64,000 nucleotides of DNA from an uncultured Candidatus Saccharibacteria bacterium (lineage in GTDB: Bacteria > Patescibacteriota > Minisyncoccia > Phycocordibacterales > CSBR16-119). Each line of letters begins with the position of its first letter. The stretch's first letter is position 1. Location: NCBI GenBank assembly GCA_964557535.1, contig CAZLAD010000004.1, forward strand, positions 19,039 to 83,038, in the 5' to 3' direction. Both the position numbers and the translations under genes were made by a program. The notes beneath the pieces were generated by a model. The model searched no databases. It was given only the letters and a program-made list of their open reading frames with translations, and was not told where the DNA came from. Positions 3,134 to 22,138 of the stretch are shown here, piece after piece.

Positions 3134-5008
3134 TTAACACCCCACCAAAATATTGGCATAAGCTGAAGTGGTGATGTACCACCAACCAGTCGAGTGATCG
3201 AGCGTCGGCCAAGGACGAATTATCTGACTGGAATATTTTTCTTGGAATCTTCGAACGGCCCTGTCGGTATCTTCTCCAAAAAATCCATCGACAGTCAAAT
3301 TACTACCGATTTCGTTATTTAAAAATTCCTGCATCTTCATAACCTCTTCTGGATTATTTTTGTTTGATTTCATTCGAAGATACGTTTTAAAGTACGGACA
3401 CGAATCATTTTTATATTCGATACTCAAATAATCTTCGAACATCCCGCCACGCTCATTGTAAAATCTGACATAAATTCTCTTGGCGCCAGCAACACACCCC
3501 ATCGATCCTTTACAGAGATCCCATTCGAGGTTTCTCTTGGTATATTCTCGAAAATAAATTTCTTTGTTGGAAAAATCTGCATTATTAGATATTTCGTAAT
3601 AAGTTATTGTGTATGGGGCCAACACAATCAAATCCACAAACCGAGAGTTTGTTCTTTTGGGATTACCCTCTATCATCACGTTCGGCATTTGAAAACCATA
3701 AATTGTTGATGCATCTGAGAGATTTTCGACGCTCTCATCTTCCTGATCGTAGATAAAGACATCAATTTTGCCGTTCGTGTCGTCCGCCGTCAAATTTGTG
3801 GCACTGGACAAAAATGCAGTATAGCGACTATCCGAGGAAACGGACGATGTCGAGGACGCACCGTTTCCAATCACATCAGAACTATTTTTACTTACAAGCT
3901 CGATAGTATCTGTATTTCTGTCATAAATAAACACATCAGAAACACCATTGGTATCCCCGTCTACTAAATTTGTCGCGTCTGAATAAAATGAAACGTAACG
4001 CCCATCAGGAGAAATCGAAACTTCTGACGATACTCCGTCACCGCCTTCACCATCGTTGTTCACACTCACACGTTCTATTTCTTCGGTATTTCGATCAAAG
4101 ACAAAAATATCAGATTGTCCCTCGATATCACCAGCAACCAAGTTGGTGGCATCAGAGGCGAACGCGATATACCGACCGTCTCCAGAAATGGCTGGGTTAT
4201 AAGAAATATTGTCTTGATCTCCAGCTATTGTTTTACTGACGAGTTCGGTTGTACCAAGCGTGCGATCACGCACATAAATATCTTGAAAAACATTTAGATC
4301 ATCAGCGTGAAGTGAAGACTGCGTGGCAAAAGCGACATATCGTCCATCGGTAGAAATGGCTGGTTCTAGAGACACCGCACTACCTTCTAATTCATCACTA
4401 TCAACACTCACGCGCTCCGTCACCCCAGTTTCTCGATTATGCACAAAAACATCGGCGGCCCCATTGGCGTCGTCATCAACCAAATTCGTCGCTTCGGATC
4501 CAAAAGTCACATACACACCGTCTCCAGAAATTTCAAGATTACTAAAGACGCCATCATCACCTGCTGTCCCATCAGTATGAACACTTACTCTTTCGGTGAC
4601 ACCAGTTTGTCGATCATGAACAAAAACATCCGAAAATCCTTCGACATCTCCCGCGACCAAGTTCGTGGCGCTCGAGTTAAAAGCAACATATCGTCCATCG
4701 GTAGAAATCGAAGGATCAATCGATGCGCCATTTCCAGGCGTCCCGTCAGTGTGAACACTCACGCGTTCTATTTCTTCGGTATTTCGATCGAAGACGAAAA
4801 TGTCAGAGGTGCCAGTATCTCCGGCAATTAAGTTTGTCGCAGTAGAAGCGAAAACAACATACCGTCCATCAGGAGTTATGCGGACGTAAGAGGAATCATT
4901 GTTTGCCTGAACTCCCAGATCGTTTACACTTGCACGTTCAACCGTCCCCGCCACGACGAAAAACGCTGGAATTGAAATAATTGCCAAAAGAAAAAATAGT
5001 GTTCGCAT
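3134..5008 (-). CDS. Secreted beta-propeller repeat protein (TolB/PD40-like repeats, DGRYVAF..ATNLV.GD.NG..DVFV.DR, about 9 copies) with a C-terminal peptidoglycan-binding domain
   Basis: 624-aa ORF. N-terminal hydrophobic signal MRTLFFLLAIISIPAFFVVAG. Regular 40-45-aa PD40-type repeats. C-terminus DGFFGEDTDRAVRRFQEKYS resembles PG_binding_1. Confidence 0.8.
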   Translation of the reverse strand: MRTLFFLLAIISIPAFFVVAGTVERASVNDLGVQANNDSSYVRITPDGRYVVFASTATNLIAGDTGTSDIFVFDRNTEEIERVSVHTDGTPGNGASIDPSISTDGRYVAFNSSATNLVAGDVEGFSDVFVHDRQTGVTERVSVHTDGTAGDDGVFSNLEISGDGVYVTFGSEATNLVDDDANGAADVFVHNRETGVTERVSVDSDELEGSAVSLEPAISTDGRYVAFATQSSLHADDLNVFQDIYVRDRTLGTTELVSKTIAGDQDNISYNPAISGDGRYIAFASDATNLVAGDIEGQSDIFVFDRNTEEIERVSVNNDGEGGDGVSSEVSISPDGRYVSFYSDATNLVDGDTNGVSDVFIYDRNTDTIELVSKNSSDVIGNGASSTSSVSSDSRYTAFLSSATNLTADDTNGKIDVFIYDQEDESVENLSDASTIYGFQMPNVMIEGNPKRTNSRFVDLIVLAPYTITYYEISNNADFSNKEIYFREYTKRNLEWDLCKGSMGCVAGAKRIYVRFYNERGGMFEDYLSIEYKNDSCPYFKTYLRMKSNKNNPEEVMKMQEFLNNEIGSNLTVDGFFGEDTDRAVRRFQEKYSSQIIRPWPTLDHSTGWWYITTSAYANILVGC

Positions 5009-14836: not shown

Positions 14837-14863
14837 GCAGAAACCGCTCTACAGAACGGTCAG

Positions 14864-14893
14864 GGCCCCTCACGGGGCTCTTTCTGTTTTTTA
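14864..14893 (+). terminator. Intrinsic terminator (GGCCCC-tcac-GGGGCT plus T-run)
   Basis: GC stem then CTTTCTGTTTTTT. Confidence 0.55.
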
Positions 14894-14995
14894 TAAAAAT
14901 AAAATATATCACTTTTCGGCGATAGCAGAGAAATGATATATTTTTCGATAACGAATTTCAGCGATAGCAGAAAAGTGTTATCGTGAAAATTTAAT

Positions 14996-15020
14996 GGATT
15001 AGAGGTCCGACCTCTAATCC
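14996..15020 (-). terminator. Perfect inverted repeat GGATTAGAGGT-ccg-ACCTCTAATCC 3' of the DUF1653 gene
   Basis: 11-bp perfect stem located 2 nt after the stop of 15022..15342. Confidence 0.55.
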
Positions 15021-15021
15021 A

Positions 15022-18477: not shown

Positions 18478-19726
18478 AATTTTTTAATTCTTCGACAATA
18501 TTTTCAATCTTCACCATTTTCGTCTTTTCATCACGGCGTTCCTTGATTTCAACTTCGCCGGCTTCGAGCGAACGTTTCCCGACAACTACACGTAACGGTA
18601 TGCCGATAAGGTCGGAATCATTGAATTTCTCTCCGGCGCTCGCATCGCGATCGTCAAACAAAACTTCAACACCAGCGTTTTGCAATTTCTGATAAATTTC
18701 TTCTCCCGCTTTCAAAACATTTTCATCATTTCCAGCGGTAATCAAATGCACCGCAAACGGCGCAATTTCCTTCGGCCAAATAAGTCCGTTGTCGTCAGAG
18801 AGAACTTCGGCGACAGTTCCCATGATACGAGATGGACCAATTCCATAAGAACCCATAAAGACAAACTGATCTTTCCCGGCTTCGTCTTTGTATTTGAGTT
18901 CGAGGGGTTCAGAAAATCGAGTACCGAGCGTAAAAATATTTCCAACTTCAACAGCTTTATTTTCGATCAAAGTTTCTCGTTTAAGATTGAGTTCTGACAA
19001 AACTTCATCATTTAGAACTTCTTTGTTTACGGCAAGCGATTGCGCTTCGTCTAGATAAATCAAATCTTCACCGGCGCTCGTGATGGTTTGAAACTCGTGA
19101 GAATATTTGGAGAAACTTCCACCCGAAGCAAATGTGATATATGTCAGATGCCCAAGTCCGACTCGATCGAAAACATTTTTATAGGCCTTTTTAACTTTTT
19201 CATAAAATTCCAAATGCTCGGCTTCATTTTTAGAAAACGAATACATATCTTTCATCAGAAATTCTCGTCCACGCATGACGCCAGACTTGGCACGAAGCTC
19301 ATTTCGAAACTTCGCTTGAATCTGATATGCCGCAACCGGCAAATCTTTGTACGATGAGATGTGATTTTTCAAAATATCGGTCAACGGCTCTTCATGTGTG
19401 AAGCCAAGTCCGAGCTCAGAATCATTTTTAAGTTTGGTCTTAAACCAATTGTCGACAACGTCATCACTCCAGCGATCTGTCGCTTTCCAAATTTCTGGAT
19501 CTTGGAGAACAGTGAGCTTCATCTCTACGGCACCAAGTTTATTCATCTCGTCGCGAATAACGTTTGAGATCTTGTTCATGACACGAAGTCCAAGTGGTAG
19601 GTACGCATAAACTCCGGCCATTTCTTTATGCACAAATCCGGCGCGGATCAAAAGTTCGGCGTTTTTTGAAGTCTCATCAGCTGGAGCTTCTTTACGGGTC
19701 TTCGTAAATAGTTTTGATTGTCTCAT
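18470..19726 (-). CDS. proS: Proline--tRNA ligase, compact bacterial type without an editing insertion
   Basis: 418 aa. The N-terminus MRQSKLFTKTRKEAPADETSKNAELLIRAGFV aligns with the ProRS N-terminus. Class II motifs and a C-terminal anticodon-binding domain are present. Confidence 0.9.
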   Translation of the reverse strand: MRQSKLFTKTRKEAPADETSKNAELLIRAGFVHKEMAGVYAYLPLGLRVMNKISNVIRDEMNKLGAVEMKLTVLQDPEIWKATDRWSDDVVDNWFKTKLKNDSELGLGFTHEEPLTDILKNHISSYKDLPVAAYQIQAKFRNELRAKSGVMRGREFLMKDMYSFSKNEAEHLEFYEKVKKAYKNVFDRVGLGHLTYITFASGGSFSKYSHEFQTITSAGEDLIYLDEAQSLAVNKEVLNDEVLSELNLKRETLIENKAVEVGNIFTLGTRFSEPLELKYKDEAGKDQFVFMGSYGIGPSRIMGTVAEVLSDDNGLIWPKEIAPFAVHLITAGNDENVLKAGEEIYQKLQNAGVEVLFDDRDASAGEKFNDSDLIGIPLRVVVGKRSLEAGEVEIKERRDEKTKMVKIENIVEELKNYV

Positions 19727-19812
19727 GGATTACATATTACTTGAAAATCAAAGTTTTTACTATATTTGACATATTATACTTAAAATGTTACTGTGAAGAA
19801 AACCCCCACGCC

Positions 19813-20175
19813 ATGAGAGCCATTCTGTATGTGATTCTTTCATTTGGCTTTGGATCCTTGATCCAAGCCCAAGACCGCGAGATCAATCTCAAAGGAGTGC
19901 GTTTCGCGATCGAAAGCGAGTACCACCCCGATAGCACTGGTGAATTCACCAACAGAGTCGACAAGCTCTATATGGTCTCGCCAACCGAACGAACGCGGAT
20001 TGAACTTTCAAACCATCCGTGTGGAAACCAGCTTGTGCGAATCGAACGCCTGCGAATGTTCAATCGCAAAGGACACAAGGTCCTCGAGGTACACTACACA
20101 TGCTTCGTTCAACAAAAGACCGAGCGCTTTCGGATATTCAGCGAAACATTCGCCCTCAGGATACCCGATAAGTAA
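19813..20175 (+). CDS. Small secreted hypothetical protein (start at MRAILYVILSFGFGSLIQAQ; the ORF track starts earlier at 19714)
   Basis: Signal-peptide-like N-terminus from the internal Met. Followed by the terminator at 20198-20228. Confidence 0.5.
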   Translation: MRAILYVILSFGFGSLIQAQDREINLKGVRFAIESEYHPDSTGEFTNRVDKLYMVSPTERTRIELSNHPCGNQLVRIERLRMFNRKGHKVLEVHYTCFVQQKTERFRIFSETFALRIPDK

Positions 20176-20197
20176 GCACCTCATCTACCGCAGAAGT

Positions 20198-20228
20198 CCC
20201 CGGCCACGAGCCGGGGTCTTCATTTTTT
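20198..20228 (+). terminator. Intrinsic terminator (CCCCGGC-cacga-GCCGGGG plus T-run)
   Basis: 7-bp GC stem, then TCTTCATTTTTT. Confidence 0.65.
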
Positions 20229-20256
20229 GCCCATTGATCAATATTATTAAAAACCA

Positions 20257-20295
20257 TGTAACAAATTCCAGCTATAGCACGAAATCGTTACAATT
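20257..20295. promoter_or_regulatory. Imperfect palindrome TGTAACaaattccaGCTATAGCacgaaatcGTTACA, 3' of the PaaX-like gene
   Basis: Shares its TGTAAC ends and GCTATAGC centre with the perfect palindrome at 20859-20896. Confidence 0.6.
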
Positions 20296-20851
20296 ATTTT
20301 AAATCAAATTCTTTTAGAAATTTTCTTTCATCGCTTGTGGCACTGGCGACAATAAATTTTATTGACGGAAAAACTTTATAAAACTCCGCGATAAATTTAA
20401 TCTCTTTCTCGCACGGATAAGGATAAATAAAAACCGATTTTTGATACTCGACAAGTCCAATACTTTTGAAATGGAAACGAACCGCTTCCCTAACCTTCTT
20501 TATTTTTTCGGGAATATCAAACATAACAATTCGCCATTTCCCATCCCAATTTTTCTGCTTGGGAATTTGTAAATTTTCTAGATCGAGTCTTTTGCTTATC
20601 TTTTTCCCTTGTTCAGAAAGAATTATTTCAAATCCATCCCCTTTTGGTTTCAAACTAACGAGTCTCGAATTGTACATAGAATCGAGACTTCGCTTAAGTG
20701 ACATTCGATTTATTTCTCGCCACTCCTTGGCAACTTCACCAATTATTCGCCACTGTTTGCCCAAAGACTTGTTGGCGCTCAAAACAACTCCGGCCGAAAG
20801 AAGCAAAATAATTTTCTTTTTAACCGAACTTAAATAATATTTCTCCCTCAT
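20294..20851 (-). CDS. PaaX-like transcriptional regulator (N-terminal winged helix + Cas2-like PaaX_C domain)
   Basis: 185 aa. The C-terminus WDGKWRIVMFDIPEKIKKVREAVRFHFKSIGLVEYQKSVFIYPYP matches the PaaX C-terminal pattern W.G.W....F..PE....R..LR..L...GF..L..SVF. Confidence 0.6.
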   Translation of the reverse strand: MREKYYLSSVKKKIILLLSAGVVLSANKSLGKQWRIIGEVAKEWREINRMSLKRSLDSMYNSRLVSLKPKGDGFEIILSEQGKKISKRLDLENLQIPKQKNWDGKWRIVMFDIPEKIKKVREAVRFHFKSIGLVEYQKSVFIYPYPCEKEIKFIAEFYKVFPSIKFIVASATSDERKFLKEFDLK

Positions 20852-20858
20852 AAAAGAA

Positions 20859-20896
20859 TTGTAACATATTCATGCTATAGCATGAATATGTTACAA
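20859..20896. promoter_or_regulatory. Perfect 38-bp palindrome TTGTAACATATTCATGCTA|TAGCATGAATATGTTACAA, 8 bp upstream of the PaaX-like start codon (candidate operator)
   Basis: The reverse complement equals itself; verified base by base. Confidence 0.8.
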
Positions 20897-20983
20897 TGAC
20901 ATTTTGGTAAATTAGTTTATTTGGAGTTGTTTTTGTTTATTTTAAATATTATTTTAAATAAATGATTTGGGGTAAAAAACGAA

Positions 20984-21009
20984 GAAGCCGCCGGTAAACC
21001 GACGGCTTC
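20984..21009 (-). terminator. Intrinsic terminator (GAAGCCG-ccggtaaaccg-ACGGCTTC) 3' of the 21017..22138 gene
   Basis: GC stem with a T-run on the minus side (plus-strand AAAAAAC before the stem). Confidence 0.6.
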
Positions 21010-21016
21010 GTGTTCG

Positions 21017-22138
21017 CTATGCAATTTTCTGCACAGGGTAAGAAAGAACGAAGTACGTCTTTAGAGCACTACTGCGAATTTGCTCCATGTTTCCGTTCCA
21101 GTGTCGAAGATCGTTCGCAAGCTCGTACAGCTTTCTGGCTTCTTCCGGACCTGTTACTTCTTGAATCGCCTCACTGAAGAGCTCCACGAACTTATCATGT
21201 TCTTCACTACTCGCGAACGGAAACCAAATCCAGTGGCTTTTTGCCCGAGCATTTTGAACGGCATCTCGGATACTTCGACACAGCTTGCTGACCAGTTCAA
21301 TCTTCGAGAGCTTGGAAACTTGCACGATCTTGATGAAAAGCTTGCTGATCAGTTTCTGTTGATGGGAATCGGCCTTGCCCGACATCCGTTCAAGGAGGTT
21401 GAGCAAAACAAATCCATCATCAGTACAATCAATAAGCTTGGTCCAGAGACTTGTGTAGGCGAAGCTCCACTGCCCATCTGTGCTCGATCTCGTGAAGACA
21501 GCCCACAATGCACCCCAGCCTTCAGTCAGTAAAACGATCTTCTCAAATGCTTGGGTCTTGTTCGTAGAGCTCGCATCTTTCGAATCAATAACGCCCCACA
21601 AAACATCCACGCTCTTGGTCGGATTGATGACATCGTTTTCGTAACGAAGCTGAATGGCCCAGTTGAGACTACTTCTCAGATTTTCCGTACCTTGAGTTCT
21701 CCAGTCGGAGGGCAATTTAGACAAAAGCCACCTGAGTTTCTTCAGGCTCGCTCCTTGCATCTGTCGCCTGATGGTTCCATGAACCCAAGACTGTACCCGA
21801 TATTTCATGTCGCTTGATGCCCAATCCTCTATTTGGAGTTGAAAATCAACACTCCTTTCCGATCTCAGAAGCATCTTCTCAATGACTTCATTGATACGCT
21901 GATCCGTTCTCGAAGTCATTTGCCAGATATCGTCCCTGTATCCTTCGGACTTCCTGACCGCAGCAAGACCATTTCGAATACTCCATAGACGAGGAACATT
22001 CTCTGTCTGCAGGAGTTGATCAAGCTCTTCAGAAGTCGGCAATCCAATTCCGCAAGATTCGACAATGTGACCCATCGGCAGCTTCCGCTCTTTGGCGGCC
22101 GCAAGTGCCTTCACAAACGTATTTACGCTCGTTTTCAT
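21017..22138 (-). CDS. Hypothetical Trp-rich protein, GC-richer than its neighbours (about 50% vs about 40%); no recognisable family
   Basis: 373-aa ORF with its own terminator and coding-like composition. No motif I can assign. Confidence 0.5.
   Translation of the reverse strand: MKTSVNTFVKALAAAKERKLPMGHIVESCGIGLPTSEELDQLLQTENVPRLWSIRNGLAAVRKSEGYRDDIWQMTSRTDQRINEVIEKMLLRSERSVDFQLQIEDWASSDMKYRVQSWVHGTIRRQMQGASLKKLRWLLSKLPSDWRTQGTENLRSSLNWAIQLRYENDVINPTKSVDVLWGVIDSKDASSTNKTQAFEKIVLLTEGWGALWAVFTRSSTDGQWSFAYTSLWTKLIDCTDDGFVLLNLLERMSGKADSHQQKLISKLFIKIVQVSKLSKIELVSKLCRSIRDAVQNARAKSHWIWFPFASSEEHDKFVELFSEAIQEVTGPEEARKLYELANDLRHWNGNMEQIRSSALKTYFVLSYPVQKIA

Follow-up and report, generated by a model that had tools for sequence, protein, structure and literature searches.

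A small PaaX-like gene set between two related palindromes in Patescibacteria: a predicted self-contained autoregulatory module

PaaX is a phenylacetyl-CoA-responsive repressor, and Cas2 is a CRISPR adaptation protein that is homologous to VapD-type toxins. Both are the nearest known relatives, by fold, of a small gene of the Patescibacteria, bacteria with tiny genomes and very few recognisable regulators. In the PaaX proteins of E. coli and Pseudomonas (PDB 8a39, 3l09) a winged helix is followed by a Cas2-like PaaX_M domain. The repressor recognises a long palindrome, TGATTC-N27-GAATCA, whose inverted hexamers lie far apart, and it represses Px, its own promoter, by sterically excluding RNA polymerase (review PMC9493321). 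The present analysis concerns a gene of 185 amino acids (aa) in a stretch of 64,000 nucleotides (nt) from an uncultured Candidatus Saccharibacteria bacterium (contig CAZLAD010000004.1), referred to below as the window. A first-pass annotation had described two related palindromes bracketing this gene, and both were found at the positions it gave. Judged on sequence, structural model and analogy together, the gene probably encodes a minimal PaaX-type repressor that would bind both flanking palindromes of 36 base pairs (bp), the upstream one for autorepression and the downstream one as an auxiliary site, the whole forming a self-contained module.

With two domains, a winged helix and a Cas2-like PaaX_M domain but no PaaX_C, the protein can be called a "mini-PaaX". 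Pfam assigned residues 100-172 to PaaX_M (PF20803; E = 2.2e-19, bit score 69.7, cut-off 24), and gave no match to PaaX_C (PF08223), the protein stopping at residue 185 right behind the Cas2-like domain. The "PaaX_C" label carried by the first-pass annotation has accordingly been changed to PaaX_M. The winged helix-turn-helix (wHTH) at the N-terminus that it proposed was borne out by an AlphaFold2 model built from 40 homologues (predicted local distance difference test 88.8), in which three helices (9-24, 30-46 and 49-61) and a beta wing (65-78) fill residues 9-78; at the sequence level no match to the Pfam PaaX N-terminal domain was obtained. In the same model a linker helix (80-92) leads to a beta-alpha-beta-beta-alpha-beta ferredoxin domain at residues 106-181. 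The top Foldseek matches of the model were E. coli PaaX (8a39, aligned over 194 columns), the best structural match, and Rv0674 (3kfw); after these came numerous Cas2 structures that matched the C-terminal half, including 5xvn, 5zyf and 3exc and, among them, type II-A Cas2 proteins. A profile search of PDB sequences with the regulator returned nothing significant.

Several features of the C-terminal domain recall Cas2, namely the ferredoxin fold, the structural matches, a run of Cas2-like motifs (h-h-h-F-D-I-P...R..LR..L...GF...QKSVF) and an aspartate, D112, which is invariant among the homologues and lies directly behind the first strand (106-111), at what we take to be the metal-binding, catalytic position of Cas2. 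In contrast to Cas2 itself, the domain is fused to a wHTH, it scores below threshold with both cas2 profiles (TIGR01573, 20.1 against 24.5 bits; PF09827, 16.5 against 23.8 bits), and it is accompanied by neither cas1, other cas genes nor a repeat array. The protein also departs from PaaX, being 185 aa long compared with about 310 aa and lacking nearby paa genes, while its predicted operator has an added conserved centre and an N24 spacing; a second predicted operator lies right past the stop codon, and there are several paralogues per Patescibacteria genome. The protein would act like PaaX at its own promoter, yet it is neither a PaaX orthologue nor Cas2.

The 64 kb of the window contain TGTAAC-N20-28-GTTACA at exactly two places, the sites flanking the gene, and 100 shuffles did not give it once. 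Extended by their inner flanks, these two sites make up an inverted repeat of 45 nt with 82% complementarity. The upstream palindrome had been described as 38 bp long and 8 bp from the start codon; its perfect symmetry actually spans 40 bp, which leaves 6 nt to the ATG (20851-20849, minus strand), and the gap for the 38-mer is 7 nt. The statement that the downstream palindrome lies 1 nt past the stop holds, the regulator's TAA being at 20296-20294. The regulator gene is an outlier in guanine-plus-cytosine (GC) content, at 34.9% compared with 43.2% for the window. All coordinates are collected in Table 1.

Close homologues of the protein numbered 257, all in Patescibacteria (the Candidate Phyla Radiation), and some are labelled Cas2 by NCBI. 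At 50% identity the family comprises 5535 clusters (E <= 1e-3) or 3071 clusters (E <= 1e-10). More than 580 family loci were found among species-representative genomes, frequently two or three per genome, and the paralogues of one genome are diverged and have different palindromes. The regions before and after the gene were surveyed in 74 homologous loci, designated here by L numbers, with a detector requiring the centre RCK[AG]/[TC]MGY (the slash marking the dyad) and, among the 12 pairs at positions 5-16, symmetry in 8 or more. Both palindromes were present in 51 of the 74 loci, only the upstream one in 10, only the downstream one in 6 and neither in 7; at least one palindrome was thus found in 67, an upstream site in 61 and a downstream site just past the stop in 57. 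None of 574 control windows scored with the same detector. A stricter version (at least 10 of 12 symmetric pairs), scanned over 481,622 bases, returned 86 palindromes, 85 of which flank a family gene, and none in shuffled loci. The 86 comprise 43 upstream and 36 downstream of called genes, six in L038, L064 and L077, where the motif-based gene finder had missed the gene and the palindromes bracket the matched gene, and one that is probably a distant downstream site. A generic dispersed repeat was rejected, with only two sites in the window, a single unrelated match in the metagenome-wide scan described below and 85 of the 86 strict palindromes beside family genes. The window holds one instance of a conserved Patescibacteria module, a gene between two predicted cognate palindromes, which is apparently undescribed: a literature search gave no paper tying PaaX to Cas2, and the top-ranked results for PaaX and Patescibacteria made no mention of PaaX. 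A metagenome-wide scan for TGTAAC-N8-GCTATAGC-N8-GTTACA yielded one match only (L084, 1045-1080), which is an unrelated inverted repeat behind a small open reading frame (ORF) on a high-GC contig.

The upstream palindrome is placed over the predicted promoter of the regulator. Its gene-proximal end contains an extended -10 (Table 1), and the same geometry, with TAnnnT at positions 15-20, a further 6-7 nt and the start codon 26-27 nt from the dyad, recurs at 16 homologous loci of different subgroups, including L001, L003, L009, L018, L036 and L044, and was seen in L096 and L086 too. A second geometry was observed at seven loci, with 45-46 nt between dyad and start codon and a TATAAT-like hexamer at positions 33-38; here the palindrome arm (ATTGCT...) takes the -35 position. 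Overall, TAnnnT followed after 5-8 nt by an in-frame start was found behind 36 of 55 upstream sites, and TAnnnT at offset 31-36 was present in 24 of 45 upstream gene-ward flanks compared with 6-10 of 45 in the other three directions. The spacing from -10 to start would place the transcription start at or beside the A of the ATG, with no space for a Shine-Dalgarno sequence, so that the regulator messenger RNA (mRNA) is probably leaderless. Among the long ORFs of the window, TAnnnT was observed 6-8 nt before a candidate start in 17 of 46 and a Shine-Dalgarno-like 4-mer in only 12 of 46; leaderless starts may be common in the source organism.

Since the palindrome covers the core promoter, a bound protein would be expected to occlude RNA polymerase. 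The predicted operator of the window, TGTAAC-N24-GTTACA, overlaps the predicted -10 and may be set beside the TGATTC-N27-GAATCA operator of PaaX. Because of the overlap with the -10 or -35, the PaaX-like fold, the PaaX precedent and the covariation between the arms and the recognition helix described below, the prediction that the upstream palindrome is a cognate autoregulatory operator is well supported. Binding of the protein at this site, and repression by such binding, are presumed from the geometry and from what is known of PaaX.

The site unit is 36 bp long, with the half-site consensus T-A-g-C-A-w-T-a, four variable bases and R-C-K-A from position 16 to position 1. Each palindrome is hence composed of an outer box (family consensus TAGCAWTA, TGTAACAT in the window), an inner stretch of four variable nt and the conserved centre RCKA/TMGY. 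Palindromic symmetry peaks at positions 3-4 and 9-16 and is weaker at 5-8, a pattern that separate contact boxes would be expected to give. The arms differ among loci and among the paralogues of one genome. Up to position 16 the two copies of a locus share 73-98% identity, which falls to background further out, and within orthologous groups all four half-sites of a locus shift together. In the alaS-linked group, for example, the inner arm reads GAGCATAC in L062, GAGCTTAC in L071 and GAGCATGC in L073, each in both copies and both arms. The clade of the window is concerted too, with the arms TGTAACATATTCAT (window), TGTAACATCTTCTT (L003), TGTTCATTAGTGCG (L001), GTACATTAGTGCG (L086 and L095) and ACTCAACTTCACG (L096). 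It was also observed that the inner box tends to be the inverted outer box (T16/A1 0.64, G14/C3 0.44 and C13/G4 0.51 over the half-sites of 45 loci), and the mean internal symmetry of the half-sites is 0.38 compared with about 0.25. These values hint at the possibility of four boxes and two dimers per 36-bp site, each half-site being itself a palindrome.

Normalised mutual information was computed over 61 protein-site pairs. The top pair links residue 50, which falls in the opening turn of the winged helix's third helix (49-61), with site positions 13-16 in the outer box; residues 54 and 58, on the same face one and two turns on, also rank high. Glutamine at residue 50 is paired with TAGCAT or AGCAAT in 16 of 16 loci, asparagine mostly with CAGCAAT, arginine or histidine with TAC or TAT, methionine (window and L003) with GTAACAT and isoleucine (L001) with GTTCATTAG. 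This is suggestive of a predicted recognition helix, 49-61, that reads the outer box.

The downstream copy behaves differently from the upstream one with respect to promoters. Its centre lies 11-103 nt past the stop, most often 21 nt, and downstream sites lack the -10 enrichment of upstream sites. Among 42 loci, 22 have a next gene that runs in the same direction as the regulator and 20, the window included, have a convergent one. The co-directional neighbours (a PIF1-type helicase, alaS, smc, ksgA and a VTT-domain protein) differ among groups, and most carry a promoter-like sequence of their own further on. Such diverse or convergent neighbours with their own promoters indicate that the downstream site belongs to the regulator gene and not to a target promoter, and its co-evolution with the upstream site implies that binding there matters. 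Of the earlier proposal that both palindromes are cognate autoregulatory operators, the part on the upstream site is well supported by promoter overlap, PaaX-like fold and covariation; as a promoter operator the downstream palindrome does not hold in general, with so many of its neighbours convergent, and binding of the same protein there is presumed from the concerted evolution of the two copies.

The downstream copy appears to be neither a promoter, a terminator nor an RNA hairpin. An intrinsic terminator was rejected, the stems being AT-rich and a T run following 5 of 45 downstream sites against a background of 6%, and an inverted or direct copy of the promoter was rejected on flank identity, which is at background past position 21 in both directions. 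In the window itself the similarity of the two sites reaches into the gene-side flanks (20257-20301 and 20851-20895; GTTACAATTATTTTA compared with GTTACAATTCTTTTA), and the downstream site therefore holds an inward-facing copy of the -10 and spacer that could fire antisense into the gene. This inward-facing extension is conserved neither in L003 nor family-wide, and the longer similarity GTTACAATT[A/C]TTTTA is likewise not kept in L003. A large-serine-recombinase attachment site at the downstream palindrome was also considered and rejected, as contigs part at a neighbouring tRNA-like gene and not at the palindrome. In L087-L094 (about 3690-3900) that tRNA-like gene, located downstream of the gene for an identical family protein, is a hot spot of integration: what comes next varies with the sample and is either a large serine recombinase, which may face one way or the other, an IS110 transposase or a set of unrelated genes.

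The downstream copy is presumably an auxiliary operator, for looping or as a roadblock. The mechanism envisaged is that the winged helix would bind DNA and the Cas2-like domain would most likely dimerise, the protein, probably as a dimer or a pair of dimers, occupying the 36-bp palindrome. Protein bound upstream would exclude RNA polymerase and give negative autoregulation. The downstream site might strengthen repression as an auxiliary operator through a DNA loop of about 600 bp; alternatively, it might act as a roadblock that shields the regulator gene from convergent or neighbouring read-through. The gene and its two sites would then form a self-contained module, present as two, three or more diverged paralogues per genome and now and then relocated whole. 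The textbook cases of LacI (O1-O2), GalR and DeoR, with their looping and roadblocks, are comparable in having a promoter site and a second cognate site hundreds of bp off, both selectively kept. They differ in that the second site of the present module lies directly past the regulator's own stop in most members, looping or a roadblock being surmised here.

Several observations weigh against a minimal autorepressor with two operators. All homologues stem from metagenome-assembled genomes. Besides the missing PaaX_C, the protein scores only 23.1 bits with the NCBIfam PaaX equivalog TIGR02277, under the cut-off of 264.55. Symmetry extends past the 36-bp core (0.42-0.62 at positions 19-22 against about 0.26 expected), and these extensions, which a protein site does not need, are not the same in both copies of a locus. 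In the covariation, where shared ancestry inflates the scores, certain residues of the C-terminal domain come close to those of helix 49-61. Within 3 kb, family-type palindromes were almost never found other than beside family genes, a distribution that would be strange in an ordinary transcription factor, and no target besides the regulator's own gene was found for the family. The convergent location of many downstream sites is a further point against it, and the distance between the two sites (603-773 bp) shows a weak 10.5-bp phasing only (R = 0.32, p ~0.01, uncorrected and with non-independent loci). As regards the symmetry past the core, template-switch correction of quasi-palindromes is a known mutational process that yields perfect symmetry neutrally, and it could be the source here without selection.

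Four other explanations were weighed against the autorepressor. The first-pass annotation had offered a tiny mobile cassette delimited by inverted-repeat ends as its second reading, and the module may indeed be, now or recently, such a cassette, whose palindromes would serve as ends for its own product, or for a recombinase supplied in trans, in a transposase-like manner. Sites for a protein that are found almost solely around its own gene are a classic transposase signature. A change of place is apparent from four relatives, whose proteins are 69-72% identical to that of the window: the module directly follows mreC in L001, L003 and L086, and in L096 it follows one small extra gene behind mreC, within a collinear block (proS-mreB-mreC...tgt-uvrB) whose products share 80% (ProS), 87% (MreB), 54% (MreC), 81-86% (Tgt) and 83% (UvrB) identity. 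In the window, by contrast, mreC and tgt abut without a scar (16668 and 16666) and the module is found upstream of proS, where it shares with the 153-aa and 373-aa ORFs a stretch (19727-22138) that is without counterpart in the four relatives; the gene has therefore been relocated together with both palindromes. Furthermore, about two-thirds of locus pairs with at least 70% protein identity have no common flanking genes, the family gene averages 5.9 GC points under its flanks and is lower in 97% of loci (76 homologous loci), a gene-less pair of related palindromes lies at 14901-14984 with 42 nt between centres, and the invariant D112 sits at the Cas2 catalytic position. The low GC content is nevertheless explicable by a lysine-rich protein. 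The protein has only the wHTH and PaaX_M domains, Pfam and NCBIfam giving no DDE, HUH, serine- or tyrosine-recombinase domain, and the family alignment has neither an HUH motif nor an invariant, catalytic tyrosine. No target-site duplication or direct repeat was seen outside the palindromes of the window, no identical or near-identical copies were found, with no second one in the window and only diverged paralogues with unlike palindromes elsewhere, and viral contigs gave one distant homologue only. Large orthologous groups have long held the same neighbours (NUDIX and thymidylate kinase, alaS or a PIF1 helicase), and an identical protein on 24 contigs always has the same upstream context. REP/RAYT elements (REPtrons) and IS200/IS605 are similar in that a small gene for a ferredoxin-like protein is flanked by related, element-specific palindromes; they differ from the regulator, which has no HUH motif or catalytic tyrosine and whose palindromes are undispersed, without multiple identical copies and variable in strand orientation. 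The support for mobility is circumstantial, nothing points to an active transposon, and a mobile cassette is considered unlikely. Even less can be said for an active nuclease or DNA-processing domain, steered by the winged helix to the bracketing palindromes, for which the Cas2-like fold and its retained aspartate would speak; this is held to be the most improbable of the explanations. If true, it would describe a Cas2-derived, self-recognising element that might act on extruded cruciforms by nicking or resolving them; such activity would explain why all four arms are homogenised, why the palindromes have extensions, why the unit was relocated and why a gene-less pair exists, and the module would be a free-living relative of the type from which CRISPR adaptation recruited Cas2.

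The palindromes might also act by structure, as 5' or 3' RNA hairpins concerned with stability, attenuation or termination, or as DNA cruciforms. The upstream site can form a stem of 18-20 bp and, as single-stranded DNA, folds at -17 kcal/mol (z = -9.3); a terminator scan flagged it as a hairpin followed by TCTTTTAT, and a weak promoter-like site (20976-20948) could read through it. Arm changes between loci are compensatory, which gave the first hint of a hairpin, in one orthologous group the sense strand has mismatches of the G-T wobble type, and the unlike extensions past the core would also suit a structure, perfect symmetry being open to the neutral explanation given above. The mismatch spectrum tells against RNA, with 67 transversions, 42 G-T and 16 A-C among the arm mismatches; outside the one group the excess vanishes (19 G-T against 15 A-C), and the wobble signature that an RNA stem would leave is therefore not a general one. 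T runs behind the palindromes are not enriched, asymmetric centres (GATA, GACC) have the same orientation in some loci and the opposite one in others, and the downstream site of the window is a poor hairpin (-4.9 kcal/mol, z = -2.4) in which the ends and the centre are still kept. The -10, 6 nt, ATG geometry moreover puts most of the upstream palindrome outside the transcript, and no Rfam family matched above threshold, by which a known RNA family was rejected. RNA hairpins are thus unsupported by mismatch spectrum, centre orientation and the weak downstream fold, and action by structure is regarded as very unlikely. The remaining explanation, that a neighbouring target has the downstream palindrome as its operator, the protein being an ordinary local regulator of the adjacent gene, could appeal to the co-directional half of the downstream neighbours, a few of which have promoter-like geometry (in L011, TATTAT, 6 nt and ATG at 44 nt from the dyad), and to the largest orthologous group, in which a divergent NUDIX gene has its -35 beside the upstream palindrome. 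It is opposed by the convergent neighbours, that of the window included, by the restriction of the -10 enrichment to upstream sites and by the variation of neighbours from group to group, alaS, smc, ksgA and the PIF1 helicase mostly having their own promoter further on, and seems a quite unlikely account.

With thousands of clusters and several paralogues per genome, the family may be a main group of DNA-binding proteins in Patescibacteria. Each member has its predicted cognate site alongside, usually twice, which would offer dozens of natural protein-operator pairs for a recognition code. A regulator gene lying within its own predicted operators and behind a leaderless promoter may be an insulated autoregulatory unit fit for compact genomes, and the aspartate retained at the catalytic position leaves a possible link to Cas2.

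Table 1. Features of the module and of its surroundings in the window.
Feature	Position	Strand	Description
Upstream perfect palindrome	20858-20897 (40 bp; conserved core 36 bp = 20860-20895)	none	ATTGTAACATATTCATGCTA/TAGCATGAATATGTTACAAT; predicted operator over the regulator promoter
Extended -10 TGtTACAAT	20858-20866	minus	Gene-proximal palindrome end, then 6 nt, then ATG
Regulator gene, 185 aa	20294-20851	minus	Winged helix, linker helix and Cas2-like ferredoxin domain
Downstream imperfect palindrome, 36 bp	20257-20292	none	TGTAACAAATTCCAGCTATAGCACGAAATCGTTACA; predicted second (auxiliary) binding site, between convergent genes
Intrinsic terminator of the 373-aa gene	20984-21009	minus	11-pair stem, then T run; parts the gene from the module
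Intrinsic terminator of the convergent 153-aa ORF (19714-20175)	20198-20228	plus	Far edge of the module's intergenic space
palA, degenerate family-type palindrome	14901-14944	none	Centre GCGATAGC; no family gene adjoining; TGaTATATT at the upstream -10 offset
palB, second gene-less palindrome	14946-14984	none	Centre GCGATAGC; 42 nt from the palA centre

The module is neighboured by mreC, mreB and proS on one side and by rpsB and tsf on the other, with tgt and ORFs without assigned function also near. No paa genes were found near the module in the window, and the other loci checked have NUDIX, tmk, alaS, PIF1 helicase, smc and ksgA genes. Neither the 153-aa nor the 373-aa ORF has a Pfam or NCBIfam match. 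The latter (21017-22138), once described as GC-rich and as the possible regulated target, has a GC content of 47.6%, equal to that of mreB and tgt. It is upstream of and co-directional with the regulator, is followed by a strong terminator and has its own promoter-like site 1.3 kb off; as a target it was rejected also because it is not conserved beside the module in relatives.

A CRISPR link was rejected, as there is no repeat array in the 64-kb window, and neither cas1 nor other cas genes were found in the window or in the loci with checked neighbours. PADLOC gave sub-threshold matches to Cas2 and LmuC only, and with these and the single distant viral match a phage or defence element was rejected as well.

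The window contains no second family gene. The gene-less palindromes palA and palB are set between convergent intrinsic terminators (14862-14893, plus strand, and 14995-15021, minus strand). The fold of palA has -9.3 kcal/mol (z = -5.3), and the arms of palB resemble the window's own sites (TAACGAATTTCAGCGATAGC compared with TAACGATTTCGTGCTATAGC). The pair could be additional binding sites, or what is left of a module since lost.

Elsewhere in the family, L043 has three palindromes (1716-1751, 1782-1817 and 2427-2462), with smc as the next gene; the arms of the distal upstream palindrome are the same as those of the downstream one, and the promoter-proximal one differs in its inner stretch. 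In the largest orthologous group (L006, L020, L044, L046 and L058), and in L005, the neighbours are genes of nucleotide metabolism. The divergent NUDIX hydrolase of this group has its own promoter of the TATAAT, 6 nt, ATG type, and the convergent downstream gene encodes a thymidylate kinase or a dNK-like kinase, the convergent neighbour in L005 being ndk.

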